Shown: in pieces, positions 38,562 through 62,592 of the stretch
How the letters are laid out: every line of letters starts with the position of its first letter
Numbering within the stretch: position 1 is the first letter of the stretch
NCBI GenBank assembly: GCA_964545075.1
Contig: CAZJFS010000005.1
Span: forward strand, 2,319 to 66,318
Source: an uncultured bacterium
GTDB taxonomy: Bacteria > Muiribacteriota > UBA9980
Length of the DNA stretch: 64,000 bases
Direction of reading: 5' to 3'
Translations under genes and position numbers: made by a program
The notes under the pieces: generated by a model
Seen by the model: the letters and a program-made list of their open reading frames with translations, nothing else
The model's database searches: none
What the model was told of the DNA's origin: nothing

Positions 38562-39793
38562 TCGTATTCATACAACTGATTATCGGCTTTCAATTTTTTT
38601 AACGTATCTGAAGTCATTCCGATCTCGGCGTCGGACAGGTAGCAGGCCGGGTCCGGGGCCCAGGTATCGTTAAAGATCGCTTCCGCTCTGACCCTGAAAT
38701 TACCGTTACAAATATTCAAATATTTGCATATTTTACAGCGGCCCTTGAGGTGCGGCTTTCTATTTTTAAGCCTTCCCATTAGTTCGTCGGATAAGTCGGG
38801 CCATATTTTAGAAAACGGCCTTTTTCGGATATTGCCGAATGAATAATGGCGCCAGAACTGGTCGGCATGAACTTCGCCGTGCTGGTCGACGCAGGAGATG
38901 GCTATGCCGGAGTTATTTCCGCCGTTATATTGCAGAAGCGTGAGTATTTCGGCCGCTCTTTCCGGATTTCTTTCAAGCATTTTCAGATAAAGCAAGACGC
39001 CGTCAACATGGTTATCGACTGTCAGCACTTCGATCGCATGGCCTTCATCATAAAGTTTTTGAGTCCGTTCAAATATGTATTCTACGGTTTTCCTGGATTG
39101 TGGCAGAGGCACTTCCTCGCTTAAAAGATCGGTTCCGCGTCCGGCGTAAACCAGATGATAAAAGCATACTCTTGGAATGCTTCGGTCTTTAAGCGTATCG
39201 AAAATAAAGGGAATTTCTTTATAGTTGCTTTTATTTATCGTGAAGCGCAGGCCGACTTTGATGCCTTTATCCATGCAATTTTCAATTCCCGCCATAGCCA
39301 TATCGAAAGCCCCTGGAACGCCGCGGAAGCGATCGTTGGTTTCAGCTATTCCGTCGAGCGAAATTCCGACGTAAGAAAAGCCGGCATCTTTTATTTTTTG
39401 GGCAGCATCTTCGTTTATAAGAGTTCCGTTGGTTGAGATCACCGCGCGTATATTCTTCGAGCGGGCGTAATCGCCGAGTTCGAAAAGGTCTTTTCTCATG
39501 AGCGGCTCGCCGCCGGAAAAAAGAAGCGTAGGAACGCCGAATCCGGCCAGATCGTCTATCATGGCCCTTGCTTCCGCTGTTGAAAGCTCGTCTTTGGCCG
39601 GTTCACATTTGGCGTTAGCGTAGCAATGAACGCAGAAAAGGTTGCATTCCGACGTTGAGTTCCATACCACGATGGGTTTTTTGTCCTTTGAAAATTGCAG
39701 CATATTCGACGGCAGCTTTGCTGAATGCCTTCCGTATCTCTGGACGTCGTGCGGAGAAACGAGACCGCATAGTAATTTGGATACGCCTATCAT
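38549..39793 (-). CDS. Radical SAM / SPASM-domain protein of the NirJ/AhbC/AhbD family.
   Basis: The CNLFCVHCY radical SAM cluster motif is present. A C-terminal Cys-rich SPASM region (CKICKYLNIC) is present. Confidence 0.7.
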   Translation of the reverse strand: MIGVSKLLCGLVSPHDVQRYGRHSAKLPSNMLQFSKDKKPIVVWNSTSECNLFCVHCYANAKCEPAKDELSTAEARAMIDDLAGFGVPTLLFSGGEPLMRKDLFELGDYARSKNIRAVISTNGTLINEDAAQKIKDAGFSYVGISLDGIAETNDRFRGVPGAFDMAMAGIENCMDKGIKVGLRFTINKSNYKEIPFIFDTLKDRSIPRVCFYHLVYAGRGTDLLSEEVPLPQSRKTVEYIFERTQKLYDEGHAIEVLTVDNHVDGVLLYLKMLERNPERAAEILTLLQYNGGNNSGIAISCVDQHGEVHADQFWRHYSFGNIRKRPFSKIWPDLSDELMGRLKNRKPHLKGRCKICKYLNICNGNFRVRAEAIFNDTWAPDPACYLSDAEIGMTSDTLKKLKADNQLYEYDWMK

Positions 39794-39889
39794 TTAAAAT
39801 TCTGCCTTCCATGTTAAAGTGTGGAAATTATAACAAAAATTCGATAATCTGTAAATATAAATATAAGCATGGCGTTGGATAAAAATGAA

Positions 39890-39918
39890 TTGACTTTAAA
39901 TCATGTTCTTGATATTAT
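39890..39918 (+). promoter_or_regulatory. Sigma70-type promoter TTGACT, 17 nt, TATTAT upstream of ahbA.
   Basis: The hexamers are read directly, about 75 nt before the ahbA ATG. Confidence 0.45.
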
Positions 39919-39992
39919 TATAAAACAAAAGAAACTTAAGCGATTTTGTCGGGTTTTGAAAGTCGCGTTAAACCCTTTAAAATGAGTGTCGT

Positions 39993-40457
39993 ATGGAAAA
40001 AGAACTGAACGAGTTGGAAAAAAAAATATTAAATCTTATTCAAAAAGATTTTCCCGTCAGCGCAAGGCCATTCGTTAAAATTGCCGAAAAATTAGGCGGC
40101 TTGAGCGAGGAATGCGTCATGGAGTCTCTTCGATCTCTCAATGAAAATGGTTATTTAAGACGCCTTGGACCGATATTTAATTCCGACCGTCTCGGCTACG
40201 TAAGTACGTTAGCCGCTATAGCGGTGAGCGGGGATGAAATTGAAAAAGCCGGTGAAATAATTAATTCTTATATGGAAGTTACTCATAATTACCTGCGCTC
40301 CGATGAAAAATTTAATATGTGGTTTACTTTAACGGCTCATTCCGGAGACCGCCTTTTAAAAATAATCGATGAAATAAAAGAAAGGACGGGCGTGAGTGAA
40401 GTGCTCAATCTTCCGGTCGTAAAAAAATTTAAAATAAAAGTCGAATTTAACGTATGA
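39993..40457 (+). CDS. ahbA: Sirohaem decarboxylase subunit (AsnC/Lrp-like NirD/NirL family, AhbA/B).
   Basis: An HTH_AsnC-like N-terminus with the NirD/L/G/H fold is present. It is paired with a paralog downstream. Confidence 0.65.
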   Translation: MEKELNELEKKILNLIQKDFPVSARPFVKIAEKLGGLSEECVMESLRSLNENGYLRRLGPIFNSDRLGYVSTLAAIAVSGDEIEKAGEIINSYMEVTHNYLRSDEKFNMWFTLTAHSGDRLLKIIDEIKERTGVSEVLNLPVVKKFKIKVEFNV

Positions 40458-40945
40458 TTACATCTGAAAAATTGAAGAAATTAATAAATATGCTTTCGCG
40501 CGGGATTGAAGTAACCCGGAGCCCTTTTTTGAAGATGGCCGAAACACTCGGCGTTTCAGAAGAAGAGGTAGTGGAAGCGGTCCGCGTGATGATGGAAGAA
40601 AAAAAGATCCGCCGTTTCGCGGCAGTTCTGAAACAGTCAAAGATAGGATATTCGGCGAATGCGATGTGCGTTTTCAACATTTCGACCGAAAAAATCGAAT
40701 TCGCAGGCGAATTCGCGTCTTCTTTAAAGGCGGTTAGTCATTGTTACGAAAGGGCGGGAACGCCTTCGTGGAATTATAATCTTTACGCTATGGTGCACGC
40801 TAAATCGAAGCCGGAATGTGAAAAAATCGCCGAAACTATAGCGGCCAAAACTTGCGCCCTCTCTTATAAGGTGCTCTTCAGCGTCCGGGAATTGAAAAAA
40901 CAGAACGCGGTTTATTTCGGCGATAAAGAATTTAATGGAGTTTAA
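40454..40945 (+). CDS. ahbB: Sirohaem decarboxylase subunit (AhbA/B paralog).
   Basis: It is a paralog of the preceding gene with 4-nt overlap. Confidence 0.65.
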   Translation: MITSEKLKKLINMLSRGIEVTRSPFLKMAETLGVSEEEVVEAVRVMMEEKKIRRFAAVLKQSKIGYSANAMCVFNISTEKIEFAGEFASSLKAVSHCYERAGTPSWNYNLYAMVHAKSKPECEKIAETIAAKTCALSYKVLFSVRELKKQNAVYFGDKEFNGV

Positions 40946-42055
40946 ATGAACATTGGTGCATGTCAAAACGATAACGCGCCGTCTCATGGCGGTTTAAATA
41001 CCGGCAAATGCCCGCGCCTTATAGCATGGGAACTCACTTCGGCGTGTAATTTAAAATGCGTTCATTGCAGGGCTTGCGCGCCGTCGGAGCGGCCCGCCGG
41101 CGAACTTTCACTTGACCAATGCCGCGTGTTTTTAAACGACGTGGCCGCTATGGAAGGCAAGCCGATATTGATTCTCACGGGCGGCGAGCCATTGATACAT
41201 CCAGATTTTTTTAAGATACTCGAACACGCTTATTCGTTGAAGATGCATACCGTGCTTGCTACGAACGGGACCCTCATAAACGATGATAACGCAGCGCGCA
41301 TGTATTCGCTTGGCGTTTCCCGCGCGAGCGTGAGTATAGACGGGCATGACGCTTCCGGGCATGACGATTTCAGAAAGGTTTCCGGCGCTTTCGAGAGCGC
41401 GCTCAAAGGCGTAAAGACCATGCAAAAAGCCGGGATACAGATCCAGATGAATACGACCATAACAAGGCGCAATATATCCGACATAGAAAAAATATTCGAA
41501 CTTGGCGTTTCACTGCGCGCGGTCGCTATACACATATTTCTTCTCGTTCCGACGGGAAGGGCCGCGAACATGATTGGCGACGAGATATCGCCCGGAGAAT
41601 ACGAAAGCGTTTTGAACTGGTTCTATGACAAGAAAAAAGATACGGCTGGCCGCATCAATTTAAAGGCGACATGCGCTCCTCATTATTACAGGATAATGCG
41701 CCAGCGCGCGAAAGCCGACGGCGTCGCGGTCGATTTTCAAACTTTCGGGCCCGACGCGGTAAGCCGTGGCTGTCTCGCCGGATGCGGGTTCGCGTTCGTA
41801 TCGTCGACCGGCATAGTCCAGGGCTGCGGCTATATGCCGGTTCCGGCCGGAAATATCCGCGAAACGCCTTTTTCAACGATATACAAAGACTCGGAATTTT
41901 TCAACCGCCTGCGCGATCTTTCGAACCTTAAAGGAAAATGCGGCAAATGCGAATACCGGGCCGTTTGCGGAGGCTGTCGCGCCCGCGCCCTGGCGGCTTC
42001 AGGCGATTGTTTTGAAGAGGAGCCCTACTGCAACCATGTTCCCGCTAAAAAATAA
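40946..42055 (+). CDS. Radical SAM / SPASM protein (AhbC/AhbD-type; Fe-coproporphyrin or haem synthase).
   Basis: The CNLKCVHCR motif is present. C-terminal SPASM cysteines (CGKCEYRAVCGGC) are present. It is in an operon with ahbAB. Confidence 0.7.
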   Translation: MNIGACQNDNAPSHGGLNTGKCPRLIAWELTSACNLKCVHCRACAPSERPAGELSLDQCRVFLNDVAAMEGKPILILTGGEPLIHPDFFKILEHAYSLKMHTVLATNGTLINDDNAARMYSLGVSRASVSIDGHDASGHDDFRKVSGAFESALKGVKTMQKAGIQIQMNTTITRRNISDIEKIFELGVSLRAVAIHIFLLVPTGRAANMIGDEISPGEYESVLNWFYDKKKDTAGRINLKATCAPHYYRIMRQRAKADGVAVDFQTFGPDAVSRGCLAGCGFAFVSSTGIVQGCGYMPVPAGNIRETPFSTIYKDSEFFNRLRDLSNLKGKCGKCEYRAVCGGCRARALAASGDCFEEEPYCNHVPAKK

Positions 42056-43556
42056 TGCTTTTATAAAGTTTTTTAGTTCCATAACCACGGCGATAACATT
42101 ACTTTTTATAATCGCGCTTTCGTCGGTTGCCGGCACGCTTATTCAGCAGAACCAGGAATTCATTTTCTACAAAAAGAATTTTCCGCAATATTATGGCTGG
42201 ATATATTTTTTTTCACTCGATGATCTTTATCATTCGGCATGGTTCGTCGCCCTGATCGTCCTGTTATGCGTAAACATAATCGTTTGCACGTTAAGACGTT
42301 TCAACTCCAGGCTTCAGGCGGCCCAAACCGTCGATTTTGACATAACCGCGGATTTTATAGCAACTTGCCGCTTCAAAAAAAGCATCGAAAAAGTTTCGAA
42401 TGAATCGGCCGCCGCGGTCATATCCGCTAAAATAAAAGAATTCGGGTACGCGCTTTACGTTAAGGAAACGGACGGCCGCGCCTGTTTTTTTGGAAATTGC
42501 GGCGCTTACTCTTTTCTGGGTGAATTCACGGTTCACGCAAGCCTGCTTATGATAATCGCCGGCGCGCTCATCGGGAATATTTACGGATATAAAACGCAGA
42601 TGGCGGGGGTTCCCGGAGACGTCCGGCCGGTTCCGACGAAGGCTTATTTAGACCTTCAGAACAGGATCGGCGAGACATTTGAAAAGGCGCGGGCTCAAGG
42701 GCGCGACAGCCACGATGAGATAGGAAAACTTATGGCGCGGCAGATGGCGCTTCCTGAAAAGTCTTTTTTTGACGTGCGCATAGATGATTTCAAAACAGTG
42801 TATGCCGAAGGTGGATTGACTGCGGAAGCGCGCGTGAAGAACTGGTACACGACTTTATCAGTCCTGTCCGGAACGACGCCTGTTTATACGAAGACGCTTT
42901 CGGTTAACGATCCAATGAGCTATGACGGGGTCAACATTTATCAGTCTTCATTCGGAGCCGTCACGTGCGGTTATAAAAATTTCAGAATACGGTATCTGGA
43001 AAAAGGCGCCGGCGCTTCTGAAACCTCATTCGTCATAAATGACGCTGAAAATTCGAGTGAGGTGCGCTTTAAAGGTTATAAGATAAGGGCATTGAAATTT
43101 TTGCCTGATTTTAAGATCGATATCGATACAAAACAGGCCTATTCCGCGTCCGATGAGCCGGGAAATCCGGCTTTAAAACTTGAAATAAGCCGGGATGGAA
43201 CCGGAGAGGTTAAGACGCAATGGCTTTTTAAAAATATTCCTGATTTTTCGCATGAAGGCGCGAGTGATGGAGAATTCTCCGGCCGGTTCATTTTCGATGG
43301 TTTTGAAGCGGTTGAAAAACAATATACCGGTCTTCAGATCGCCTATGATCCTGGCGTCTATCTGGTGTGGGCTGGTTTCGCGTTTATGACGGCTGGCTTT
43401 TTCTGGGCTTTTTATATTTTCCATAAAAGGGTCTGGTGCGTCTTCGATAAAAGCGGATGCCGGATTCATCTGGGCGGTTCGGCCGATAAGAACCATGTCC
43501 TTTTCGAAGAGGAATTCAATGAATTTTGTTCTGAAATCGAATCAGAGGTGAAGTGA
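42012..43556 (+). CDS. resB: Cytochrome c biogenesis protein ResB/Ccs1 (System II).
   Basis: An N-terminal TM helix, a large soluble domain and C-terminal TM helices are present. It lies directly upstream of ccsA. Confidence 0.65.
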   Translation: MKRSPTATMFPLKNNAFIKFFSSITTAITLLFIIALSSVAGTLIQQNQEFIFYKKNFPQYYGWIYFFSLDDLYHSAWFVALIVLLCVNIIVCTLRRFNSRLQAAQTVDFDITADFIATCRFKKSIEKVSNESAAAVISAKIKEFGYALYVKETDGRACFFGNCGAYSFLGEFTVHASLLMIIAGALIGNIYGYKTQMAGVPGDVRPVPTKAYLDLQNRIGETFEKARAQGRDSHDEIGKLMARQMALPEKSFFDVRIDDFKTVYAEGGLTAEARVKNWYTTLSVLSGTTPVYTKTLSVNDPMSYDGVNIYQSSFGAVTCGYKNFRIRYLEKGAGASETSFVINDAENSSEVRFKGYKIRALKFLPDFKIDIDTKQAYSASDEPGNPALKLEISRDGTGEVKTQWLFKNIPDFSHEGASDGEFSGRFIFDGFEAVEKQYTGLQIAYDPGVYLVWAGFAFMTAGFFWAFYIFHKRVWCVFDKSGCRIHLGGSADKNHVLFEEEFNEFCSEIESEVK

Positions 43557-43559
43557 TAA

Positions 43560-44561
43560 ATGATGGATGATATTGGCTTTACTATAGCTTTTTTTTCTTA
43601 CATGGCCGGCGCTCTGGCTTATACATATTTTCTTTTTTGGAAACGGTCCCAGCCCGGCCATGCCGCGACTGGCGTATTATGGTTAGGCGCCATTGCTCAT
43701 GCTTTTGCGATTGGCGATCGTATGCTGGCGGCGGGGTACATGCCGATGTCGAACATGTTCGAGTCGCTTTCGGTTTTTTCGTGGCTTATAGCGCTGTCTT
43801 ATTTCGCAGTTGAATATAAATATAAGACGAAATCTCTCGGGCCTTTCGTCATGAGCATATCGTTTACAATGATAGCCATAGCCTCCGTCCTTCCGCGCGA
43901 CATTAAACCGCTTGTTCCGGCTCTTCAAAGTTACTGGCTTGGCCTTCATGTCGCCGTAACGTTTATCGGCGAGGCCGCGTTCGCGGTTTCATACGTTGCC
44001 GCGCTGTTATATATCATGAAGCCGGCGCGCGACGGCGAAAAGTCCTCGGCGTTTTCCAATGTTTTCTCCGCATCCAACGCCGGGGCGTTTCTCGGCGTAA
44101 TATCGTTTTTTATTATAGCGCTTCTGAAAAAAAGATCGGTCATATTTCCGGAGAACTATCCGGCTTTTTATATTCCGCTTGCAGTCGCGACCGTATGTTC
44201 GATCGTTTTTTACCGGATGAGAAATATTATAGTTTCGGTTCTTCCTTCAGGCGAGATATTAGACGATATCAGCTATCGCTCGGTCAGTATAGGGCTGCCC
44301 GTTTTTACGCTTGGCGGGCTGGTTTTCGGGGCTATATGGGCTCACAGGGCGTGGGGGACATACTGGTCGTGGGACCCGAAGGAAACCTGGGCGCTTATTA
44401 CGTGGTTCATATATGCGATATATCTTCATATGCGCCATCATTCCAACTGGCGGGGAATGAAAGCGGCGTATATCACTTCGCTGGGTTTCATCTCGACGCT
44501 GTTCACTTATTTTGGCGTTAATTATCTTCTTTCCGGGTTACATTCATATGGAAGGTTTTGA
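43560..44561 (+). CDS. ccsA: Cytochrome c-type biogenesis protein CcsA/ResC.
   Basis: The WGTYWSWDPKETWALITW tryptophan-rich haem-handling motif is present. Confidence 0.85.
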   Translation: MMDDIGFTIAFFSYMAGALAYTYFLFWKRSQPGHAATGVLWLGAIAHAFAIGDRMLAAGYMPMSNMFESLSVFSWLIALSYFAVEYKYKTKSLGPFVMSISFTMIAIASVLPRDIKPLVPALQSYWLGLHVAVTFIGEAAFAVSYVAALLYIMKPARDGEKSSAFSNVFSASNAGAFLGVISFFIIALLKKRSVIFPENYPAFYIPLAVATVCSIVFYRMRNIIVSVLPSGEILDDISYRSVSIGLPVFTLGGLVFGAIWAHRAWGTYWSWDPKETWALITWFIYAIYLHMRHHSNWRGMKAAYITSLGFISTLFTYFGVNYLLSGLHSYGRF

Positions 44562-44564
44562 TTT

Positions 44565-45905
44565 ATGCTAGTATCCATTGGTTTAAACTATAAAAAGGCT
44601 TCCGTTGGCGTTCGCGAAAAAATGGCTATCGGCGCCGCGAGGCATGCGGAAGTGCTTGCGAGGTTTTATGCTCTTGAAGGCGTTCGCGAATGCGTCCTTC
44701 TTTCGACCTGCAATCGCTTTGAATTATATCTCAGGCTTGGTTCGTTAGACGCTATGGATCTTGTAAGAAACGCCGTAAAGCATGATTTCAATATTTCCGG
44801 ACGCGACATGGCCGAATATTTTTATGCTTACGAGTGCGAGAAGGCGGCCCGTCATCTTTTCGAGGTCGTATCGAGCCTGGATTCGATGATCATAGGAGAA
44901 TCCCAGATACTCGGCCAGATCAAGGACGCCTACGCGCTCGCCGTCGCGAATAAAACGACCGCCGTCGTATTGAACAAGCTTTTTCATCACGCCATAAGGG
45001 TAGGTAAACTTGTCAGGACCGATACTTCGATCGGGAGGAACGCGGTTTCGGTAAGTTCGGTCGCTGTCGATCTGGCAAAAAAAGCGCTTGGCGATCTTGA
45101 ACGCATGTCGGTGCTTCTAATAGGCGCCGGCGAGATGGCGGAGCTTGCGGTTACGTGCCTTATGGCGAATGGCGTTAAAAATGTTGCCGTCGTGTCGAGA
45201 ACGCTTTCCCGGGCTATCGCTCTCGCCGGAAAGTACGGCGCGGATCCTGCCGAGATGCGTGATATGTATGAAAAAATGGCCTTGGCGGATATCGTTATAT
45301 CCTCGACGAGCGCGCCTCATTATGTGGTCGAGCCGCGGCGCGTAGCCGAAGCGATGCTGAAGCGTCCTGAAAAACCTCTTGTCCTCATTGATATAGCCGT
45401 TCCGAGGGATATTGATCCCGGAGTTTCCTCTGTCGAAAACGTTCATCTCTATAACATAGACGATCTAAGGCAGGTTATAGACGGAAACATGCTCTTGAGA
45501 AGTTCGGAAGTGAAAAAGACGCGCAAAATAATAAGCGGCGAGCTGGATCTTTTTATTCAGTGGCTTTCGAAACAATCGGTTATGCCGTTCGTTTCAAGGT
45601 TTCGAAAACACGTCGAAGAGATAATCAAAAGCGAGATAGATAAATTTTCGAAGCGGATGCCCGCTAACGACATCATGCAAAAAAGTATAAAAGCTTTCAC
45701 TGAAGCGGTTATCAACCGGATAACCAGCACGCCCATAATCAAGATACAAAAATGCGGCAGCAAATGCCATGTCGAATCCTGCATAAGAAACGTGGGCTGC
45801 CTTTTCAACCTTGACGGCGATTTTGACGAAGAAACGGCGGAGCCGGTTCGTACGCACAGGGAAGAAACGGCGGAGCCGGTTCGCAAAGCGGAACCGCCGT
45901 CTTAA
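44565..45905 (+). CDS. hemA: Glutamyl-tRNA reductase.
   Basis: The LSTCNRFELY active-site region and an NADPH-binding GAGEMA motif are present. Confidence 0.85.
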   Translation: MLVSIGLNYKKASVGVREKMAIGAARHAEVLARFYALEGVRECVLLSTCNRFELYLRLGSLDAMDLVRNAVKHDFNISGRDMAEYFYAYECEKAARHLFEVVSSLDSMIIGESQILGQIKDAYALAVANKTTAVVLNKLFHHAIRVGKLVRTDTSIGRNAVSVSSVAVDLAKKALGDLERMSVLLIGAGEMAELAVTCLMANGVKNVAVVSRTLSRAIALAGKYGADPAEMRDMYEKMALADIVISSTSAPHYVVEPRRVAEAMLKRPEKPLVLIDIAVPRDIDPGVSSVENVHLYNIDDLRQVIDGNMLLRSSEVKKTRKIISGELDLFIQWLSKQSVMPFVSRFRKHVEEIIKSEIDKFSKRMPANDIMQKSIKAFTEAVINRITSTPIIKIQKCGSKCHVESCIRNVGCLFNLDGDFDEETAEPVRTHREETAEPVRKAEPPS

Positions 45906-50844: not shown

Positions 50845-52011
50845 TTATTTATAAAACTCGTAGAAATATCGCACGGCCGATTCCGGTTCGCTGAAGCTCT
50901 GATACCGGTATTTTATCTTTTCCACGATATTTTTCAGGCAGTCGTATTTATAAGTTATTTTATATATTATTCCGTCTCTTGAATTATATTTAATTTCCTC
51001 TATTAAATTTTCTGAATCGTCATACCGGTATCTTATTCTATATTCTATTGACTCATCTTCATTTAGGTTCGTCTCTTCGGTTAATTTATTGCTTTTATTA
51101 TATGCGTACATAAAACGCCGGGAAAGCTTGGAGCCGATGTATTCGGCGGTTTCCGTCAGATTTCTTAAGGCGTCGTATTTGTAAGTCGTCTTAATATCCA
51201 TATTGGATTGAAGGTTGTGGCGCATTTCCAGCGTTTTATTTTTATTCGCGTCGTATTTATAATTTTCGATTGATATCGTTTCATCATCGGGGCCATAGGA
51301 TATCGTTTCGATCAATTGGCCCGCTTCATTGTATTTGAGAGCTTGTTTATATGAAAGAACGTTTTTTTCATAGTATGATTCAAAGGTCTTGTTTCCGCGC
51401 GCGTCATATTTATAAACATATCTGAAGTCTACCGTGCCGTCGAAGATGCTGCAGATGAAGTCCGTTTCGAATCCGCGCGCGTCGTATTTATGAATGATTT
51501 TTTTGTCGAGGGAGTTGCCGTAAAACCACGACTCTTCCGTTAGTTTAGAGTTGGCGTCGTATTTATAAGACGCCGAGCTTTCGATGCTTTTGTCCGCCTT
51601 GAAATCTATCTGCCTTTTTTTCAGGGATTTTTCGTCGAATATATTCAGGCTTCTGAAGGAAATATTTCCGGCTTCGTCATAAGAAATATTTTCGGACAAG
51701 TTTCCGGCGCGGTCATATTTAAGTGTCGTTTTTTTTATGCCGGCGTTTTCTTTAAGGCCCTTGTTGTAAGAATATTCAAATTCGGTTATTGACTTTACGC
51801 GTTCCCTTATTATTTTTTCACGGTATTTATCGGGCGGTAAATTATTATCGTAATTCCCAGCCATTAAGGGCGGGCGTGATAGGGTGAAAAATAAAATCAT
51901 TAAAATTATCGTGAAAATCGATTTATAATTATTCAAAAAATCAACCTCGTTTAAAATTAAAAAATATTGTTTATTCAATATTGTAGCAGGTTTTTGATTT
52001 TTTTTCCACAA
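50845..52011 (-). CDS. YD/RHS-repeat protein (small, membrane-anchored or secreted).
   Basis: An N-terminal TM helix is present. At least 7 repeats of Y(K/R)YDxxxxLTEE occur, for example YKYDANSKLTEE and YKYDARGNKTFE. Confidence 0.6.
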   Translation of the reverse strand: MWKKNQKPATILNKQYFLILNEVDFLNNYKSIFTIILMILFFTLSRPPLMAGNYDNNLPPDKYREKIIRERVKSITEFEYSYNKGLKENAGIKKTTLKYDRAGNLSENISYDEAGNISFRSLNIFDEKSLKKRQIDFKADKSIESSASYKYDANSKLTEESWFYGNSLDKKIIHKYDARGFETDFICSIFDGTVDFRYVYKYDARGNKTFESYYEKNVLSYKQALKYNEAGQLIETISYGPDDETISIENYKYDANKNKTLEMRHNLQSNMDIKTTYKYDALRNLTETAEYIGSKLSRRFMYAYNKSNKLTEETNLNEDESIEYRIRYRYDDSENLIEEIKYNSRDGIIYKITYKYDCLKNIVEKIKYRYQSFSEPESAVRYFYEFYK

Positions 52012-52131
52012 AAAAAACGCGTGGAAATAAAAATCATTAAATCATAATATAATTTCGCCGAAAAATTATGGATAATGTATCAAAGATATGTTATAATTAA
52101 TAAAAAATAAATTAAAGGGGTGTTCTATATA

Positions 52132-53310
52132 ATGGGTTTAATGAAGTTAATATCTCAACTCGACGCTTTAGATCATAAAATGCACGGCACGGATTTTTTG
52201 CATACATGGAAAAAATCCGATGACCAGATAAGCGCGACGCTTCTTACGGCGCAGATATTAAAAAAATTATATGAAGAAGGCAAAAGTTGTAAAGTATTTA
52301 AATCAGGCCTCGCCATTTCCAACTTCCGCGATAATTCAACGAGGACCAGATTCTCTTTTGCTTCCGCTTCCAACCTTTTAGGGCTCACGGTACAGGATCT
52401 CAATGAAAGCACTTCCCAGATCGCCCATGGCGAAACGGTCCGCGAAACGGCCAACATGATTTCGTTTCTTACCGAAGTTATCGGTATCCGCGATGATATG
52501 TATCTCGGCGAAGGGCATAAATATATGTGCGAAGTCGGAGAGGCTCTCGATGACGGTTACAAGAACGGCGTTTTGCACCAGCGGCCTTCGATAGTCAATC
52601 TGCAGTGCGATATCGATCATCCGACCCAGTCGATGGCCGATCTTTCACATCTCATAAATTACTATGGCGGAGTAGAGAAGCTCCAGGGTAAAAAAATAGC
52701 CATGACGTGGGCTTATTCGCCCAGCTACGGGAAGCCTCTTTCCGTGCCGCAGGCCATCATAGGCCTTATGTCGCGTTTCGGTATGGATGTCGTTCTCGCT
52801 CATCCCGAAGGCTACAACCTCATTCCCGAAACGCTCAAGATTTCCGAAAAGAATGCGAAAAAGTCCGGCGGCAGCTTTAAAGTCGTTAAATCGATGGAAG
52901 AAGCATTCAAAGGCGCCGATATAGTTTATCCGAAATCATGGGCTCCTTATAGCGTAATGCAGACCCGTACGCCCCTGCTTCTGAAAAAAGATCTGGAAGG
53001 CTTGAAGAATCTTGAAAAACAGTGCCTTGCGAATAATGCCAAGCACAAAGACTGGGAATGCACTGAAAAAATGATGAAACTTACAAAGGGTGGAAAAGCC
53101 CTTTATATGCATTGCCTGCCCGCCGATATTTCAGACGTGTCATGCAAGGAAGGCGAAGTTTCAGCTAAAGTGTTCGATAAATACAGAATTGAAACTTATA
53201 AGGAAGCCGGTTATAAGCCTTTCGTTATCGCCGCCATGATGCTTCTTTCGAAATTCAAGGATCCGGCCAGGACCCTTGCGTCGCTCAATAAAAGAAGATT
53301 CGCCGAATAG
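52132..53310 (+). CDS. ygeW: YgeW-type knotted carbamoyltransferase (putative oxamate carbamoyltransferase).
   Basis: The STRTR carbamoyl-phosphate motif is present. There are long stretches of near-identity to E. coli YgeW as recalled: SGLAISNFRDNSTRTRFSFASA, SQIAHGETVRETANMISF, HPTQSMADL, KKIAMTWAYSPSYGKPLSVPQ and ALYMHCLPADIS. An AAAGGGG RBS lies before the ATG at 52132. Confidence 0.85.
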   Translation: MGLMKLISQLDALDHKMHGTDFLHTWKKSDDQISATLLTAQILKKLYEEGKSCKVFKSGLAISNFRDNSTRTRFSFASASNLLGLTVQDLNESTSQIAHGETVRETANMISFLTEVIGIRDDMYLGEGHKYMCEVGEALDDGYKNGVLHQRPSIVNLQCDIDHPTQSMADLSHLINYYGGVEKLQGKKIAMTWAYSPSYGKPLSVPQAIIGLMSRFGMDVVLAHPEGYNLIPETLKISEKNAKKSGGSFKVVKSMEEAFKGADIVYPKSWAPYSVMQTRTPLLLKKDLEGLKNLEKQCLANNAKHKDWECTEKMMKLTKGGKALYMHCLPADISDVSCKEGEVSAKVFDKYRIETYKEAGYKPFVIAAMMLLSKFKDPARTLASLNKRRFAE

Positions 53311-53387: not shown

Positions 53388-55049
53388 ATGAGTAAAGAGT
53401 TGATTTTGAAGGAAGCTAAAAATTATGAGAACGATATGATCCGGTTCATGCGCGATCTTATAGCTATTCCCGGTGAATCCTGCAAGGAAGAAAACGTTAT
53501 TAGACGCATAAAAACCGAAATGGAAAAAGTCGGGTTTGACGAAATCATGATCGATAAAATGGGGAATATTATCGGCAGGATCGGCGACGGCCAAACTAAA
53601 ATAATGATGGACGCTCATATCGATACGGTCGGTATCGGCGACCGTACCGCCTGGAAGATCGATCCATACAATGGCGAATTCAAGGACGGGATAATATACG
53701 GGCGCGGAGCCTCCGATCAGCGCGCGGCCATGGTCGCCATGGTTTACGCCGGCGCTATAATAAAAAATCTTAAGCTTAAGGACGATTATACGCTTTATGT
53801 TACCGGAACCTGCCAGGAAGAGGACTGTGACGGCCTTCCTCTTTTGCATATGATCCGCGACGAAAAGAAGATCGTTCCCGATTACGTCGTTATAACGGAA
53901 CCGACCAATCTCAACGTTTATCGCGGCCATCGCGGCAGAATGGAGATCAAGGTCGTTACGAAAGGATTGTCATGTCACGGTTCGGCTCCCGAACGCGGCG
54001 TCAACGCGGTTTATAAAATGATGCCCATAGTTGAAGGGATAGAAAAATTGAACGACAGTCTCGCTCCAAATAAATTCCTTGGAAAAGGAACTATAACCGT
54101 TTCAAAGATAGAATGCAAGACTCCATCGTTATGCGCCGTACCCGACGAATGCACTATTTATATCGATCGCCGCCTTACCGCCGGCGAAGATATGAAACTC
54201 GCCGTATCACAGATACAGAAGATCGTCTCGGCTACGGCTCACTCAAAGGACGCGCGCGTCGAGGTTCTTCAATATGAAGAAAAATCATGGACCGGCCTCA
54301 CCGTCGGCCAGGAAAAATATTATCCGACATGGGTATTGCCGGAAGATCACGTTCTTACTCAGGCTATGGCGAAATCGGCTGAAATAGCTACCGGCCATAA
54401 AACCAAAATCGACAAATGGACATTTTCGACAAACGGCGTCGCTTCCATGGGACGGCTTGGAATTCCTACGATAGGTTTCGGCCCTGCTCATGAAGTTTAC
54501 GCTCATTCCATAAACGACCAGGTACCCGTTGAGCATATCGTAAAGGCCGCCGCCGTTTATGCCATGTTTCCCGAGATTTTCACGAAGATGCTCGCCGAAG
54601 AGATAAAAGCCGGAAAAGACCCTAAAAAGGTCGTAATGGAAGTCGAAGCTGAAGCGCCCGCGGAAAAAACCGTCAAGGCTAAACGCGGCCCCGGCAGACC
54701 GCCAGCCAAAGCCGTCGCCAAGAAAAAAGCAGGCAGACCGGCCAAGAAAGCGGGAAGGCCCGCAAAAAAAGCCGCCGCGAAAGTTGAAAAAGCCCCGAAA
54801 AAACGCGGCAGAAAACCGGCCGCTGAAAAAGCCGTTAAAGTTTCGAAAAAAATCGAAAAACAGCCGAAAACGTCAAGGACGCTTGACGACGTACTCAAGC
54901 TTCTAAATATCGGCGTAACTTCTGAAAAAACGGCGAAAAAAGCCGGCAGGAAACCCGGCCCGAAACCCGCGAAGAAAGCGGGAAGACCGGCGAAAAAGAC
55001 CGTCGCCAAAATAGCCGGCAGAAGACCCGGCAGGCCGGCGAAAAAATAA
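53388..55049 (+). CDS. ygeY: YgeY-type M20 family peptidase/deacylase with a C-terminal Lys/Ala-rich AT-hook-like extension.
   Basis: The M20 core (about 400 aa) matches E. coli YgeY as recalled: IPGESC, MDAHIDTVGIG, VTGTCQEEDCDGL, YRGHRGRMEI, HGSAPERG and IGFGP. An extra tail of about 150 aa carries GRPAKK and KRGRKP repeats. Confidence 0.8.
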   Translation: MSKELILKEAKNYENDMIRFMRDLIAIPGESCKEENVIRRIKTEMEKVGFDEIMIDKMGNIIGRIGDGQTKIMMDAHIDTVGIGDRTAWKIDPYNGEFKDGIIYGRGASDQRAAMVAMVYAGAIIKNLKLKDDYTLYVTGTCQEEDCDGLPLLHMIRDEKKIVPDYVVITEPTNLNVYRGHRGRMEIKVVTKGLSCHGSAPERGVNAVYKMMPIVEGIEKLNDSLAPNKFLGKGTITVSKIECKTPSLCAVPDECTIYIDRRLTAGEDMKLAVSQIQKIVSATAHSKDARVEVLQYEEKSWTGLTVGQEKYYPTWVLPEDHVLTQAMAKSAEIATGHKTKIDKWTFSTNGVASMGRLGIPTIGFGPAHEVYAHSINDQVPVEHIVKAAAVYAMFPEIFTKMLAEEIKAGKDPKKVVMEVEAEAPAEKTVKAKRGPGRPPAKAVAKKKAGRPAKKAGRPAKKAAAKVEKAPKKRGRKPAAEKAVKVSKKIEKQPKTSRTLDDVLKLLNIGVTSEKTAKKAGRKPGPKPAKKAGRPAKKTVAKIAGRRPGRPAKK

Positions 55050-55096
55050 ATCAGTAAATTCTAATATAACAATATATTTGGAAGGCAGGTCAGCAA

Positions 55097-56035
55097 ATGA
55101 AAAAAGCGGTTATCGCCGTTGGCGGCAACTCACTTATAAAAGACAAAAACCATCAGACTGTTCAAGATCAATATCTGGCCGTTTGCGAAACCGTTCATCA
55201 TGTAACCACGATGATCGGCAAAGGTTATAACGTTATTATGACCCACGGAAACGGCCCTCAGGTCGGCTTCATATTAAGGCGGTCGGAGATCTCCGCGACC
55301 GAACTTCATGAAGTTCCTCTTGATTCATGCGGCGCCGACACGCAGGGCGCTATCGGCTATCAGATCCAACAGGCTTTTTATAACGAATTTAAAAAGCAGA
55401 ACATAAAAAAAGACTGCGCGACCGTGGTTACCCAGGTGCTCGTCGATAAAAACGACCCGGCGTTTAAAAATCCTACGAAGCCTATCGGTTCGTTCATGCC
55501 TAAAGACGAGGCTGACAAGCGCGTTAAAAGCGATGGCTGGAACGTCAAGGAAGACGCCGGCCGTGGTTATCGCCGCGTCGTGGCTTCACCTATGCCTAAA
55601 CGCATCGTTGAAATAGAAGCTATCAAAAAACTCGTAGATTCAGACTTTCTTGTCGTCGCCGTTGGCGGCGGCGGAATTCCGGTCCTGGAAGACGATAAAG
55701 GAAATCTTAAAGGCACGGCTGCCGTTATTGATAAGGATTTCGCGTCGGCGCTTCTGGCCGCCGAAGTAAAAGCGGATGTCTTTATTATAACTACGGGCGT
55801 TGAAAAAGTCTGCATAAATTACAATAAGCCCGATCAGAGGACTATCGATAAAATGACGATGGCCGAAGCCGAAAAATACATGGCGGAAGGCCAGTTTCCC
55901 GCCGGCTCCATGGGTCCGAAGATCCAGGCGGCTATAATGTTTCTTAAGAACGGCGGCGAAAAGGTTATAATCACCTCACCCGAGTTTATCGGAAAAGCCG
56001 TTAACGGCGAGACCGGAACGCACATAACGAAATAA
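55097..56035 (+). CDS. arcC: Carbamate kinase.
   Basis: The AVIAVGGNSL N-terminus, the amino-acid kinase fold and the size (312 aa) fit. It is co-oriented with ygeW and ygeY. Confidence 0.8.
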   Translation: MKKAVIAVGGNSLIKDKNHQTVQDQYLAVCETVHHVTTMIGKGYNVIMTHGNGPQVGFILRRSEISATELHEVPLDSCGADTQGAIGYQIQQAFYNEFKKQNIKKDCATVVTQVLVDKNDPAFKNPTKPIGSFMPKDEADKRVKSDGWNVKEDAGRGYRRVVASPMPKRIVEIEAIKKLVDSDFLVVAVGGGGIPVLEDDKGNLKGTAAVIDKDFASALLAAEVKADVFIITTGVEKVCINYNKPDQRTIDKMTMAEAEKYMAEGQFPAGSMGPKIQAAIMFLKNGGEKVIITSPEFIGKAVNGETGTHITK

Positions 56036-56233: not shown

Positions 56234-58159
56234 GTGTTTATTATGAATATTGAAAACAAGATAAACTTTACCCGTGAAAGAATATATTCTGCGCGGCTTA
56301 TATTCAAGCCGTTATTGATCGTTTTTGCGCTGATTATTATTTTATTGTTCAGCGTTGCTCCGGTTTCGGCGCTCGATCTTTCTAAAAAATATGCTCAGAA
56401 GGCCGGCGCGGATTTTTTCGCTTCGCTTCAGATGCGGCCGTCGGAGCCGCGCGCGATATTTATCGATGCCGAAGAAGAAAAAGATCCCGTGATTTTATAC
56501 GCCATGTTCTCCGAAACAGGCAGAAAACTATATTTTTTCGGAAAACTTTTGCCGGATGTCGAAAAAAACATTTCCTCGGACTTTGTAAAGCGTTCGCTCC
56601 TCGACAGGTTCAGGACCAAAAGGCGCGACGGGTCTCTTTTTTATGAGCGCGGGAATTGTCTTTCGGCTTTCCTTGAATTGAGCTCGCGTTTGAAATTCGC
56701 GGCGGTTTATGTTCCATATTCGGACGGCGTTAAAATATCCGCGTCAGCTGAAAGAAAAGAGCCTGCGGCCTTCATATCGGACCGCGGATATATCGAAATA
56801 TCATGCTCTTATGACGCTTTTGTCGAAGGCGGAAAGTCGGGTGAAAGATTTCCGGAGCTTTTGAATTTAATTTTTAAATCAGCAAAGCTGAAATTAAGCC
56901 TGACCGTTGAATATAACAGATATTATTTCGACCGTCCGGACATGTTCGGTTTCGTTAATCCGATCTTATCGATGCGGGAGGATAAAATCGGCGCTCCTCT
57001 TTTTCTTTCGCACAAGATGACGCAGAACAGAAGAATAAGCGATAATTCTGAAAAGGCTCTGCGCGACGCGCGTGACGCGGTTCGTTATATTTCAGCCGAT
57101 TACCCTTTGATTTCGCAGGATATGCGCGTTAAGATCGGGGCGGTCGAAGCCGGAGTGAATCTCGATCTGAATGAGCCCGGCCAGACCGATATAGGCTCGG
57201 GTCAGAACACATTCGTCTATCTGTCGTACGGACCCGGGATCAATTATTACGACGCGCCATACGGTTCGCTCGGCCATGCTGAAATGTCTCCGCGATTCAT
57301 CTTTTCCGGAGATTTGTTAAACTTAAGGGACGCGCAGTTCTATCCCAAGAATAGTTGGGAAACGCGCGGAACCGGTATCGCCCGATATGACGAAATAAAT
57401 GCTTTTCAGTCGGACATTCTGACGTCCGGCGAATTTCCGGAAACCTTTGTCCGTTTCGTAGCGCCGGTTTACATGGCGCTTAACGCGCGTGATATATATC
57501 TTGAAAAAATGACGTCCGCGCTGCTTCGATATGGTCTGGCGAATGATACCCGGGAACTTTTGATGGATTTTGATTTCGCCGGCGTGGCGCACCGCGGAAA
57601 TCCGGTCAATAACGAAGTAAGAGTTTCCGGCGCGGTATATCCGGCTTATTCGTCTCGCGCGATGATAGTTCCGGCCGGAAGAAAAAAAATATATCTGGAA
57701 CTTTTTGAGGAAGAACTAAGAAAAGCCAAGGTGAGCCGCTTTCCTGGCGGCACGTATTATCGCGATTATTTCATCGAGGCGGCTTGCGCCGGCGAAGCCG
57801 GAATGAGAGCGGCTTATATCGAATATCTGCTTTTTTCGACGGATCCATGTCTTTTCGGCGCCGTAAAAGCGGCCAGGGAAGAAGGACGCTATGGCGCATA
57901 TCTTTTAACCGCGCGAGCCGCCGCCGGGATCATTGAAAAAGAAGGCCTGGCTTTTTTTGAAAGCGGCCGCGTAAAAGCCCGCAGATCGGAACTTTCCAAA
58001 TGCGCCGAAGCGTATTATGATTATCTGGAGGCGTTGAGGGAGGGGCGTTCCAAATCGCGAATAACTCAGCTTTTCGATCGTTTCGTTCAAACATATAACG
58101 TTTCGAATAGCGGGAACTCTAAAATAGAGTTAAAAGCTCGTCCCGATGATAAGCGATAG
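56234..58159 (+). CDS. Hypothetical membrane-anchored or secreted protein (641 aa).
   Basis: An N-terminal TM/signal segment is present. No family was recognised. Confidence 0.45.
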   Translation: MFIMNIENKINFTRERIYSARLIFKPLLIVFALIIILLFSVAPVSALDLSKKYAQKAGADFFASLQMRPSEPRAIFIDAEEEKDPVILYAMFSETGRKLYFFGKLLPDVEKNISSDFVKRSLLDRFRTKRRDGSLFYERGNCLSAFLELSSRLKFAAVYVPYSDGVKISASAERKEPAAFISDRGYIEISCSYDAFVEGGKSGERFPELLNLIFKSAKLKLSLTVEYNRYYFDRPDMFGFVNPILSMREDKIGAPLFLSHKMTQNRRISDNSEKALRDARDAVRYISADYPLISQDMRVKIGAVEAGVNLDLNEPGQTDIGSGQNTFVYLSYGPGINYYDAPYGSLGHAEMSPRFIFSGDLLNLRDAQFYPKNSWETRGTGIARYDEINAFQSDILTSGEFPETFVRFVAPVYMALNARDIYLEKMTSALLRYGLANDTRELLMDFDFAGVAHRGNPVNNEVRVSGAVYPAYSSRAMIVPAGRKKIYLELFEEELRKAKVSRFPGGTYYRDYFIEAACAGEAGMRAAYIEYLLFSTDPCLFGAVKAAREEGRYGAYLLTARAAAGIIEKEGLAFFESGRVKARRSELSKCAEAYYDYLEALREGRSKSRITQLFDRFVQTYNVSNSGNSKIELKARPDDKR

Positions 58160-58205
58160 CAAAACTCAAACAATCGTGAAAATTGAACGAGCGCGAACGC
58201 CAGCT

Positions 58206-58718
58206 CTATTTATTGCTGACCTCGACAAAAAGCTCGGTGCCTTTTGCGATTTCAACGTCCTTTCCTTTTACGAAGAGTCCGCCTACGATTCCGATGGGAC
58301 CCAGCAGTAAAAATCCGCCGGCTGAAGCGCCGATGGCGTATCCTTCCTGCTTATTTATCTTCGCCGATTCTTCGCCGAGCTTGATGGGAACCCGATTGCC
58401 TTTTTTATCGTTGACGAAAAGAAAGTTCAGTTTTATTCTCGCGTTTTTTCCGAATTTGCCGGGTCCGCGGACCTCGGTGATCTGGGCCTGCGCCAGGGCG
58501 CCTTTTTCAATAACCGTTTTCGCTCCGATCTTTACGGACTTTGCCACGGTGAATTTAACCATTTCGCCTTTTTTACTGGTCTTGGACGACAGCGGCATTT
58601 CAAGAATCAGCTTGACCAGAGTTCCAGCGGGCACGTTAAGCTCGGCCGCTTCCAGAAAACCGAAAGAGGAAAATAAAAGACTTAAGACCATTAAGCTTAT
58701 AAAAAATCTGTTTTTCAT
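58206..58718 (-). CDS. Small secreted hypothetical protein.
   Basis: A GGAGG RBS lies 6 nt before the ATG at 58718. A signal peptide MKNRFFISLMVLSLLFSSFGFLEA is present. The ORF-track start at 58757 would translate the RBS. Confidence 0.5.
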   Translation of the reverse strand: MKNRFFISLMVLSLLFSSFGFLEAAELNVPAGTLVKLILEMPLSSKTSKKGEMVKFTVAKSVKIGAKTVIEKGALAQAQITEVRGPGKFGKNARIKLNFLFVNDKKGNRVPIKLGEESAKINKQEGYAIGASAGGFLLLGPIGIVGGLFVKGKDVEIAKGTELFVEVSNK

Positions 58719-58809
58719 AAAATGCCTCCATGAATAAAAATTACCTGATAATAACATATAGATGAAGTATTGTCAATTCATAATAAGCGCGCGCGTAAGC
58801 CGCTATCTT

Positions 58810-60594: not shown

Positions 60595-62592
60595 TTACAG
60601 AGCGAGTGTCGAATCGACAACGGGAACGAGGTTCTGACCGGTAACGGTAATCGATCCTGTAGCGTTCTTTTCGTCAAGCGAGTTGAACGAGAGCGTCGCA
60701 TTGCCGTCTTCGCCGGTTATGCCCGTAACGGTCTGGCCGTTTGCGCCCATCGATACAGCCACGCGCGCGTATTTAACAGCGCGTTCGCCGTTGGTAACGT
60801 TTACGACGACTTTGTCGCCATCGCGTTTAGCGGTGAATTTCGCCTGTTTCGGAACGTCGTTTCTAACCTGCATGGAGCAGTCGCCGAATATGTTGTACTG
60901 TTCGAAAAGCATTACGCCTGATGAGTTAGCCGCGGTACCCCATATCTGCATGCCCTTTAAGATGCCCGTGAGAGCGAGAGCGCCTACCGACGACTGTTTT
61001 TCCTGGGCGGCCTGAACGAGGTTGATCTCTGATTGCATATCGCAGGGCGGAACCCATTCGGCGTTCGTCGATGAACCGAATATCGCTGCGGCGCCGGCTG
61101 GTTTTTCGGGTGTTCCGGCTTTCATCCAAGCTTCGCAGAAGCAGTCGGACCCGCCGTTGAATGCGCCGTTGACGCAGGCTACCGACCATATAACGGGGAG
61201 CATGCGATCGTTTTTAAGGGCAAGAGCTTCGGCGTTTCCAAAGGATGTGGTGACCCATGAGGTTTTCGAGCCGTGACCGATGTAGTTGATGAGCGATCTG
61301 CCTTCGTTTATGGAGGCGGAAAGTTTGACTTTCGAAGCCGTCGGATCGTAGTTCTGATCGACTACGTCGAAGTTGAATTTCATAAGTCCGTCGCGGAGCT
61401 GGTTTGCGCGTTCAAAATCAGTGGGCGTTCCCTGATTGCTTGCGATGCCTACGGCTTTTCTGTACCATTTAGCCGCGTCGCCGGTGTAAGGGAACTGTTC
61501 GTAGTGAATTATTCTTGCTACCTGATTTTTAACTTCGGCCGCGTTCTTGGCTGAAATTCTGGAGATCATGGCGTCCGGAACGTGATCGTCGCCGGCGAGT
61601 TTCGTGTAGCAGGGGTCGGATGCGGCTTTTTCTTTCACGCCCAGGAGCGTGGGAACGAATTCCGAGTCGCCGACGAGTATGATGTAAGCCATTTTCGTAG
61701 CGGCATATTCGGCTTTTATGAATTTGTAAACGTCATCCGCCGTGGCTCCGATTTCGCTCATTTTAGCGACTTTTACGCCGAATCCCTGTTTTTTCTTCCA
61801 TTCGACGAGGGGCATGATTTCCTCTAACATGCTGTCGTGGGATATTACAAGTATGTTTCCGAGCTCGAGTCTTTCGATAACGTCGGTCGGCACGAAGTTC
61901 ATGAATGTGTTTTTATAAATCTCGGCGAATTCGTAAGGAACGGTTTTTTTTGCTTCAGCGCCGCGGACGGCGTTTTTATATCTTAATTCGATCCGCATTC
62001 TTTTAGCCACTTTCATGGCTTTTTTCGCGTTGTCGTACTGGAACGGGTTGACGGAAACTTCAACGCCGCGAACGTCGCGCATAACGAAAGGAGCGCTGGT
62101 TACGACTTTCTTGTCCATTCCCGGGAAAGTGTTTGGCGTGTTATAAAAATCGTTGTATTCGAAATTTACTTCTTCGGGGTTGACATTTCTTGTGATCTGG
62201 CCCTTTGATGGAGCGGCGGCGTTCTTCATTGCGATTTCGGCCCAGTCTTCCGATATTACGCTGGCTTCGACTTCGGCGCCTTCGGGGAGCGCCACGAAAG
62301 TTTTCATTGCGGGTATTTCAGGAAGGCCTTTTTCCATGTGTTTCGATGATATTCCAACGGTCGTGAATTCGGCGTTTTGATTTCCCGCGGGTTTTGTTTC
62401 GCGATAGAAGCCGGGAACCGTAACTTCAATTACTTCGACATTTTTGCTTCTGGTCGTTATGAGTTTCATTTCAGGAACGGCGCCGGATTTAGCGCTTCTG
62501 GTAAGTTGAACCCATTCGGACGCCGCGAATGCGGTTCCGATCGATGATACCGCGAAAGCGATAACGAGAAGGAGAAGGGATAATTTTTTCAT
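60595..62592 (-). CDS. Secreted gingipain-like cysteine peptidase (family C25).
   Basis: A signal peptide is present. The catalytic His context is YIGHGSKTSW. The catalytic Cys context is WSVACVNGAFNG (compare gingipain VACVNGDF). Confidence 0.7.
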   Translation of the reverse strand: MKKLSLLLLVIAFAVSSIGTAFAASEWVQLTRSAKSGAVPEMKLITTRSKNVEVIEVTVPGFYRETKPAGNQNAEFTTVGISSKHMEKGLPEIPAMKTFVALPEGAEVEASVISEDWAEIAMKNAAAPSKGQITRNVNPEEVNFEYNDFYNTPNTFPGMDKKVVTSAPFVMRDVRGVEVSVNPFQYDNAKKAMKVAKRMRIELRYKNAVRGAEAKKTVPYEFAEIYKNTFMNFVPTDVIERLELGNILVISHDSMLEEIMPLVEWKKKQGFGVKVAKMSEIGATADDVYKFIKAEYAATKMAYIILVGDSEFVPTLLGVKEKAASDPCYTKLAGDDHVPDAMISRISAKNAAEVKNQVARIIHYEQFPYTGDAAKWYRKAVGIASNQGTPTDFERANQLRDGLMKFNFDVVDQNYDPTASKVKLSASINEGRSLINYIGHGSKTSWVTTSFGNAEALALKNDRMLPVIWSVACVNGAFNGGSDCFCEAWMKAGTPEKPAGAAAIFGSSTNAEWVPPCDMQSEINLVQAAQEKQSSVGALALTGILKGMQIWGTAANSSGVMLFEQYNIFGDCSMQVRNDVPKQAKFTAKRDGDKVVVNVTNGERAVKYARVAVSMGANGQTVTGITGEDGNATLSFNSLDEKNATGSITVTGQNLVPVVDSTLAL

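Follow-up and report, generated by a model that had tools for sequence, protein, structure and literature searches.

A YgeY-family M20 metallohydrolase of an uncultured bacterium carries a conserved, lysine-rich C-terminal tail with AT-hook-like cores

Basic tails of the histone-H1-like, PAKKA and AT-hook types arise repeatedly in bacteria, almost always on proteins that handle DNA or belong to granules. The Pseudomonas proteins PhaF and AlgP join a folded N-terminal module of DNA-unrelated function, which binds polyhydroxyalkanoate granules in PhaF and associates with polyphosphate granules in AlgP, to a disordered K/A/P-rich tail of ~150 amino acids (aa) that has DNA or a different polyanion as its ligand and sets subcellular position; the 154-aa KPAA domain of AlgP binds DNA and localises to polyphosphate granules (PMC9239181). 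In CarD of Myxococcus xanthus, as in HMGA, several G-R-P hooks lie in a basic region beside an acidic stretch, and in CarD this arrangement (an acidic region followed by four AT-hooks) is C-terminal on an unrelated bacterial domain (PMC2919716). Mycobacterial Hlp/HupB and Ku, Deinococcus HU and actinobacterial TopA carry Lys/Ala/Pro tails that evolve fast, are confined to particular lineages and influence DNA binding (PMC3553676, PMC5714199); in mycobacterial Ku, Hlp and HU, the K/A/P-rich tails both attach to DNA and draw segments of it together (PMC3553676). Here we describe a tail of related composition on a catabolic enzyme, a YgeY-family M20 metallohydrolase. It is encoded in a 64,000-nucleotide stretch (the window) of the genome of an uncultured bacterium (GTDB lineage Bacteria; Muiribacteriota; UBA9980; assembly GCA_964545075.1, contig CAZJFS010000005.1, positions 2,319 to 66,318). 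A preliminary description made from the letters of the window had proposed that an M20 hydrolase of the YgeY type is fused there to a histone-H1-like, AT-hook-bearing tail. All coordinates below are positions in the window; those of the main features are collected in Table 1.

The identification of the enzyme as YgeY holds at the equivalog level. Residues 5–402 of the protein cover positions 3–397 of the 399-position YgeY equivalog profile NF009555 (569 bits, cutoff 321), and the core also matches NCBIfam TIGR03526 (566 bits, cutoff 321.5) and the Pfam families Peptidase_M20 and M20_dimer (PF07687, 66.6 bits). Since these residues already fill the profile, everything beyond the core end ...AVYAMFPEIF is extra. 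The metal and catalytic residues H77/D79, D110, E144/E145, E171 and H373 are present and are invariant or nearly so in an alignment of 46 homologues, and an AlphaFold2 model built from 46 sequences gives the core a predicted local distance difference test (pLDDT) score above 90. A close YgeY structure was not found by sequence, the nearest solved one being DapE (3tx8). From the profile score and the motifs, the core enzyme is predicted to be catalytically intact. The step assigned to YgeY in reductive urate degradation is the cleavage of albizziin at its 3-ureido group, an activity demonstrated for the E. coli enzyme together with YgeX; the 2-ureido group is phosphorolysed by YgeW, and the carbamoyl phosphate is then used by carbamate kinase (PMC12507026). 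Ordinary YgeY (E. coli P65807 type) shares with the present protein the equivalog-level core, the M20 motifs and the ygeW and carbamate kinase neighbours, but is ~395–410 aa long and ends without a tail.

The core and the tail belong to one open reading frame (ORF). As had been claimed, neither a stop codon nor a frameshift separates them, and the frame is continuous in all three variants of the gene described below. The ORF listing begins at TTG 53382 (555 aa), in the same uninterrupted frame as ATG 53388. The latter is the more likely start: an AGAGGGA element resembling a Shine-Dalgarno sequence lies 9 nt upstream of it, and it is the start used in public gene calls (P0001, 553 aa, identical protein).

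At least seven independent assemblies contain the fusion, which occurs in three sequence variants. The identical protein, within the same ygeW / ygeY-tail / carbamate kinase order, is present in ENA ERZ795026, ENA ERZ27257449, JGI 3300009694 and JGI 3300025867. A diverged variant in the metagenome-assembled genome GCA_964551445.1 is 87% identical overall and 92% identical in the core, and a third variant lies on a short JGI contig from sample 3300021177. The two diverged variants, with core identities of 91–92%, have the same tail, and in all three the gene is read in one frame to a stop codon 47–48 nt before the carbamate kinase gene. Two findings had been named that would speak against the fusion, an assembly artefact and a stop codon between the M20 domain and a separate small basic protein; both were looked for in the assembled sequences and neither was found. 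Judged by these assemblies, the fusion is not an assembly artefact. The contig from sample 3300021177 is itself probably chimeric downstream of the ygeY-tail gene (L014, ~1215–1417): similarity to carbamate kinase ends after ~225 nt, and what follows is unrelated, GC-rich and carries an ORF on the other strand.

The tail is clearly translated and under purifying selection, as judged from the pattern of sequence divergence. In three pairwise comparisons of the variants, the ratio of non-synonymous to synonymous substitution rates (dN/dS) in the tail is 0.09, 0.09 and 0.06, at dS of ~0.95–1.23; that of the core is 0.06. Differences between the tails fall at codon positions 1, 2 and 3 in numbers of 17, 17 and 66, and all indels (3, 21 and 18 nt) are multiples of three. 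The gene's own + frame has the lowest dN/dS of the six; the antisense shadow, the only other stop-free frame, gives 0.16–0.25, and the remaining four exceed 1 and contain stops. Three identical KAGRPAKK peptides are written with different synonymous codons, which implies that these repeats are old in the DNA and have been held constant in the protein. The SRTLDDVLKLLN peptide is likewise identical in the three variants despite 4–7 synonymous nucleotide differences. Columns of the hook cores are identical in all variants in 21 of 23 cases, against 84 of 107 other columns.

The antisense frame contains a 150-aa ORF (54557–55009, –) with FFAGLPAFF-type repeats, open in all three variants. Such repeats follow from the complement of AAR/GCN/CCN codons, and the ORF looks like a by-product of this codon composition. 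It is one of the forms that an artefact could take, the others being an assembly chimera or a frameshift that joins YgeY to a gene for a small basic protein. An ORF that stays open opposite the tail in other variants as well, and a variant contig that does look chimeric, albeit downstream of the gene, lend such explanations what support they have. Set against them are the seven independent assemblies, the three variants with a continuous frame and the same place of the stop, and a dN/dS of the antisense frame 2.5-fold above that of the + frame despite common wobble positions, on which an antisense gene was rejected. A separate small protein starting at internal Met-419 (553-aa numbering) was rejected too: no + strand promoter-like site was found inside the tail, and the AAGG Shine-Dalgarno-like site before this codon is not conserved in the L001 variant. 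We consider an artefactual origin of any of these kinds very improbable.

The tail comprises 155 aa (54582–55046), with 40 K, 28 A, 16 P, 12 G and 12 R (26% K, 18% A, 10% P) and a net charge of +39; its isoelectric point (pI) is 11.06, compared with 6.1 for the core. The H1-like character ascribed to it is borne out in this sense, the resemblance being one of composition. All the peptides quoted in the preliminary description were recovered: KRGPGRPPAK, three exact copies of AGRPAKK, KRGRKPAAEK and RRPGRPAKK. Altogether there are five G-R-P cores, whereas 0.097 would be expected from composition and none of 20,000 shuffled sequences reached five, and three GR[KR]P variants besides; the pentapeptide PAKKA occurs three times. 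Each G-R-P core is flanked on either side, within 5 residues, by 1–3 K/R. Gly is preceded by A in three cores and by P in two. Thus the cores are rightly called AT-hook-like, with a G-R-P flanked by K/R, but they are not canonical AT-hooks, having A or P in place of the Arg that precedes G-R-P.

The tail is not uniform along its length. In the AlphaFold2 model, the terminal core helix (residues 381–407) runs into the first tail residues; most of residues 418–553 have pLDDT below 50, and the sole helix predicted in that stretch is at 499–505 (LDDVLKLL). It lies within SRTLDDVLKLLN, a segment that exceeds the rest of the tail in mean hydrophobicity and whose helical hydrophobic moment is 0.79. 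The model thus predicts, in answer to the suggested check for disorder, that the tail is intrinsically disordered apart from this short conserved helix. From its N-terminus, the tail consists of a helical extension of the core, an acidic patch, a basic block, a non-repetitive segment with the amphipathic helix, and a further basic block (Table 1).

The underlying DNA had been described as a run of degenerate repeats. Related units do exist: the 21-nt consensus proposed earlier has three matches at no more than 3 mismatches, with 0.01 expected. A run they do not form, since related units of 70–85% identity are dispersed over the two basic blocks, and Tandem Repeats Finder detects only 2.4 tandem copies of a 21-nt unit (54723–54772). 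A 46-nt segment in the second block (54965–55010) is 80% identical to one in the first (54737–54782), from which we take block 2 to be in part a duplicate of block 1.

Compared with the described systems, the tail is very similar in length and composition to those of PhaF and AlgP. The latter consist of KPAA-type tetrapeptides repeated in long tandem arrays and have no G-R-P cores, whereas the YgeY tail has (A/P)GRPAKK heptads in two blocks together with an acidic patch and an amphipathic helix, and shares no sequence homology with them; their hosts are granule proteins, and YgeY is a soluble catabolic enzyme. With CarD and HMGA it shares several hooks in a basic region near acidic residues, but those proteins have canonical R-G-R-P and a long, highly acidic region, where the YgeY tail has A/P-G-R-P and a 13-residue patch with 5 acidic residues; the host domain of CarD is an RNA polymerase-interacting transcription factor, and here it is a hydrolase. 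Hlp/HupB, Ku, HU and TopA are DNA-binding proteins already, while YgeY is without known nucleic-acid function. The long tandem array of a 4–5-residue unit that marks the H1-like/PAKKA-KPAA class is absent, and homology to Hc1, linker histone or AlgP was detected neither with Pfam at E <= 10 nor in a profile search of 1.84 billion representatives. We conclude that the YgeY tail is outside the AT-hook/HMGA and the H1-like/PAKKA classes proper, although it would work in a similar way: it shares their composition and G-R-P cores, lacks R-G-R-P and the tandem array, and showed no homology to them in the searches made. Its novelty lies in the host, a catabolic hydrolase, and in the architecture of acidic patch, hooks, conserved helix and hooks.

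The distribution of the tail is narrow. Orthologues at 77–82% core identity (at least 7 Wallbacteria-type genomes) end in ...FPKKLVAELKK, eight residues past the last aligned position, and their carbamate kinase gene follows 18–136 nt further on. More widely, 118 of the 120 best YgeY homologues are 381–418 aa long, in agreement with the tail-less family profile and with the statement in the preliminary description that E. coli YgeY has no such tail. A check of orthologues for the extension, also proposed there, located it only in the three closely related variants. Among themselves these show 91–99% core identity, and no tail-less protein exceeds 82% identity to them, which fits a single, recent gain of the tail in a narrow subclade of Wallbacteria.

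A donor gene for the tail was not found in protein, profile or metagenome contig searches. A phmmer search with the tail against 5.8 billion proteins listed only the third tailed variant (partial); it did not list P0001 or P0002, its word-based candidate step having probably been swamped by low-complexity proteins. A profile of the three tails had no match at E <= 0.001 among the 1.84 billion representatives, and a scan of metagenome contigs re-found, among the matches listed, only the same contig. Origin by read-through after loss of a stop codon was rejected, the spacers of tail-less relatives (18–136 nt) being too short for the ~420 nt to be accounted for and unrelated to the tail DNA. Ahead of carbamate kinase, these spacers (L004–L011) contain ACGGAGGA, a strong Shine-Dalgarno element, while the spacer of the tailed variants is a different one, AT-rich and 47–48 nt long (55050–55096 in the window), and contains GGAAGGCAGG; since both element and spacer differ, the whole junction appears to have been replaced when the tail was gained. 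No other real gene with at least two GR(K/R)P motifs was found in the window or in the related loci fetched, a weak test given a sample of ~50 genes, and a proteome-wide habit of basic tails is unsupported by this sample.

By analogy with the systems above, the tail probably anchors the enzyme on DNA or on some other polyanion. The preliminary description had suggested tethering to the nucleoid or to polyphosphate, or moonlighting as a nucleoid protein, all of which are plausible by analogy. We put at about even the chance that it is a polycationic tether of the AT-hook/PAKKA type which binds DNA and holds the enzyme on the nucleoid. The units of G-R-P and Lys-rich sequence would bind DNA electrostatically, in a minor-groove-type mode, and the bound tail would keep an otherwise soluble YgeY on the nucleoid, much as PhaF is tethered there by its H1-like tail; because the core contains the M20 dimerisation domain, a YgeY dimer would have a pair of tails, with which it could link DNA segments. 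Five units agree with the operational definition of an AT-hook as a G-R-P core with flanking basic residues, typically 1–5 residues away (PMC4615771), and it is on account of these cores, and by analogy, that DNA is chosen as the ligand. Several points weigh against the tether to DNA. Canonical R-G-R-P is absent, the only R-G-R being that of RGRKP, with Pro displaced by one residue. Pfam at E <= 10 lists neither AT_hook (PF02178) nor linker-histone nor Hc1 on the tail, although short models are easily lost to HMMER filters; the only match at this threshold is a chance-level one to DUF6115. BLASTP against an HMGA1a sequence gave E = 8.5, which is not significant. A hydrolase of ureido amino acids has no obvious reason to sit on DNA, RNA, polyphosphate or acidic lipids would be about equally good ligands for such a polycation, and DNA binding does not explain the conserved amphipathic helix. 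Both the binding and its benefit to the cell are what we infer by analogy.

Other explanations of the tail differ in what they take its ligand to be, and rank by weight from polyphosphate or RNA binding, through membrane or partner docking, to a role without a ligand. If the tail binds not the chromosome but some other polyanion, such as polyphosphate granules, RNA or ribosomes, the enzyme would be placed in a granule or condensate. Charge density and disorder would serve this purpose equally; AlgP, whose H1-like KPAA tail is of nearly the same length at 154 aa, resides on polyphosphate granules in a manner dependent on polyphosphate kinase (PMC9239181), and RNA is preferred about ten-fold over DNA by extended AT-hooks with G-R-P cores (PMC4615771). 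In those extended hooks, however, the basic residues are 12–15 residues away, while here they stand directly beside G-R-P as in canonical DNA hooks, and nothing in the window suggests polyphosphate metabolism; we regard this alternative as unlikely. The basic repeats may instead be accessory to SRTLDDVLKLLN, which with its polybasic flanks would direct the enzyme to a membrane or a partner protein, the bound target being an anionic phospholipid or a protein. No other piece of the tail is as strongly conserved as this helix, which is the sole one that AlphaFold2 predicts there and stands out in its amphipathicity and hydrophobicity. It is also only ~7–11 residues long and internal rather than terminal, and the G-R-P cores are conserved too, which a spacer would not need. 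An electrostatic complex with YgeW or carbamate kinase was considered and is unsupported: these proteins are neutral to basic (pI 6.7–9.1), not acidic, and their charge does not shift between tailed and tail-less lineages. Docking through the helix seems to us improbable. Lowest among these is a tail with no ligand at all, acting as a solubility or entropic 'bristle', tuning expression or stability, or being a nearly neutral, tolerated low-complexity extension. Low-complexity Lys-rich tails do arise many times over and change fast (PMC3553676), in-frame indels have given the variants unequal numbers of hook units, and no homologue was found elsewhere in the searches made; yet a dN/dS of 0.06–0.09 at saturating dS, conserved G-R-P cores and an invariant acidic patch and helix speak against it, and we hold it to be slightly less probable still.

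A more far-reaching and doubtful idea is that the tailed YgeY is a protein with two jobs, either a 'trigger enzyme' and nucleoid-associated protein or a condensate scaffold. In the former case, the dimer may bridge AT-rich DNA and couple the flux of urate-derived ureido compounds to the state of the chromosome or to expression of its own operon. In the latter, a condensate with nucleic acid or polyphosphate may concentrate the steps that produce (YgeW) and consume (carbamate kinase) carbamoyl phosphate, and the amphipathic helix SRTLDDVLKLLN would be the docking site for a partner.

Table 1. Coordinates of the ygeY-tail gene, the parts of its product and its operon partners (nucleotide positions in the window)
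Feature	Position	Strand	Remarks
ygeW (knotted carbamoyltransferase)	52120..53310	+	NF005538, 685 bits; upstream operon partner
ygeY-tail gene	53388..55049	+	Single ORF; ATG 53388 gives 553 aa; stop 55047-55049
YgeY-family M20 metallohydrolase core	53388..54581	+	aa 1-398, end ...AVYAMFPEIF; NF009555, TIGR03526, Pfam
Core motif DAHID	53610-53630	+	Metal/catalytic
Core motif GASDQ	53706-53720	+	Metal/catalytic
Core motif CQEED	53811-53834	+	Metal/catalytic
Core motif ITEPT	53892-53906	+	Metal/catalytic
Core motif YAHS	54498-54509	+	Metal/catalytic
TKMLAEEIKAGKDPKK	54582..54629	+	Extends last core helix; tail-less orthologues end within it (...LVAELKK, then stop)
Acidic patch VVMEVEAEAPAEK	54630..54668	+	13 residues, 5 acidic and 1 basic; invariant in all three variants
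Basic block 1	54669..54869	+	Three G-R-P cores, RGRKP, PAKKA units; net +5 to +6 per 15 residues
Block 1 G-R-P cores	54693-54701, 54732-54740, 54753-54761	+	Conserved in all variants
Block 1 RGRKP	54807-54818	+	
Non-repetitive segment with amphipathic helix SRTLDDVLKLLN	54870..54929 (helix 54873-54908)	+	12 residues
Basic block 2	54930..55046	+	Partly diverged copy of block 1; length varies by in-frame indels
Block 2 cores	GRKP 54945-54956, G-R-P 54981-54989, GRRP 55017-55028, G-R-P 55029-55037	+	
Carbamate kinase	55097..56035	+	NF009007, 428 bits; downstream operon partner, 47 nt past tail stop codon

The order ygeW / ygeY / carbamate kinase is the same in all related loci, and no + strand terminator-like site was found between the ygeY-tail and carbamate kinase genes. 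Among 20 ORFs scanned at 28.5–62.6 kb of the window there is no xdhD, ssnA, hyuA or ygeX, so that the trio stands alone; therefore its substrate in this organism may not derive from urate. In the tail-less relative GCA_964421195.1 (L002, 4789–5964), ygeW is called as two ORFs (295 and 79 aa), likely owing to a frameshift, a pseudogene or an assembly error.

Directly downstream of the operon lie genes for proteins of 641 aa (56234–58159, +) and 184 aa (58183–58737, +) that belong to no Pfam family; the position of the former is conserved in L001 (631 aa). A gene for an RHS/YD-repeat protein with a hydrophobic N-terminus (50845–52011, –) adjoins ygeW, and a C25 (gingipain-type) peptidase with propeptide is encoded further downstream (60595–62592, –). 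A haem and cytochrome gene cluster occupies 37170–45905. It encodes two NirDL/AhbAB-like siroheme decarboxylase subunits and two radical-SAM/SPASM enzymes of an alternative haem pathway type, together with ResB and CcsA-type cytochrome c assembly proteins, a glutamyl-tRNA reductase and a cytochrome b561/c7-like protein.

Were the tail a generic polyanion tag, it would extend the catalogue of bacterial disordered tails only modestly. The combination of a recent gain, with ~80%-identical orthologues that lack the tail, and of selection as strong as that on many folded domains amounts to a clean natural experiment on the birth of a disordered nucleic-acid-binding module and on its use to a metabolic enzyme, be it in localisation, partitioning at division, condensate formation or regulation. 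Since the tail is short, self-contained and easily synthesised, this is directly testable even though the organism is uncultured.

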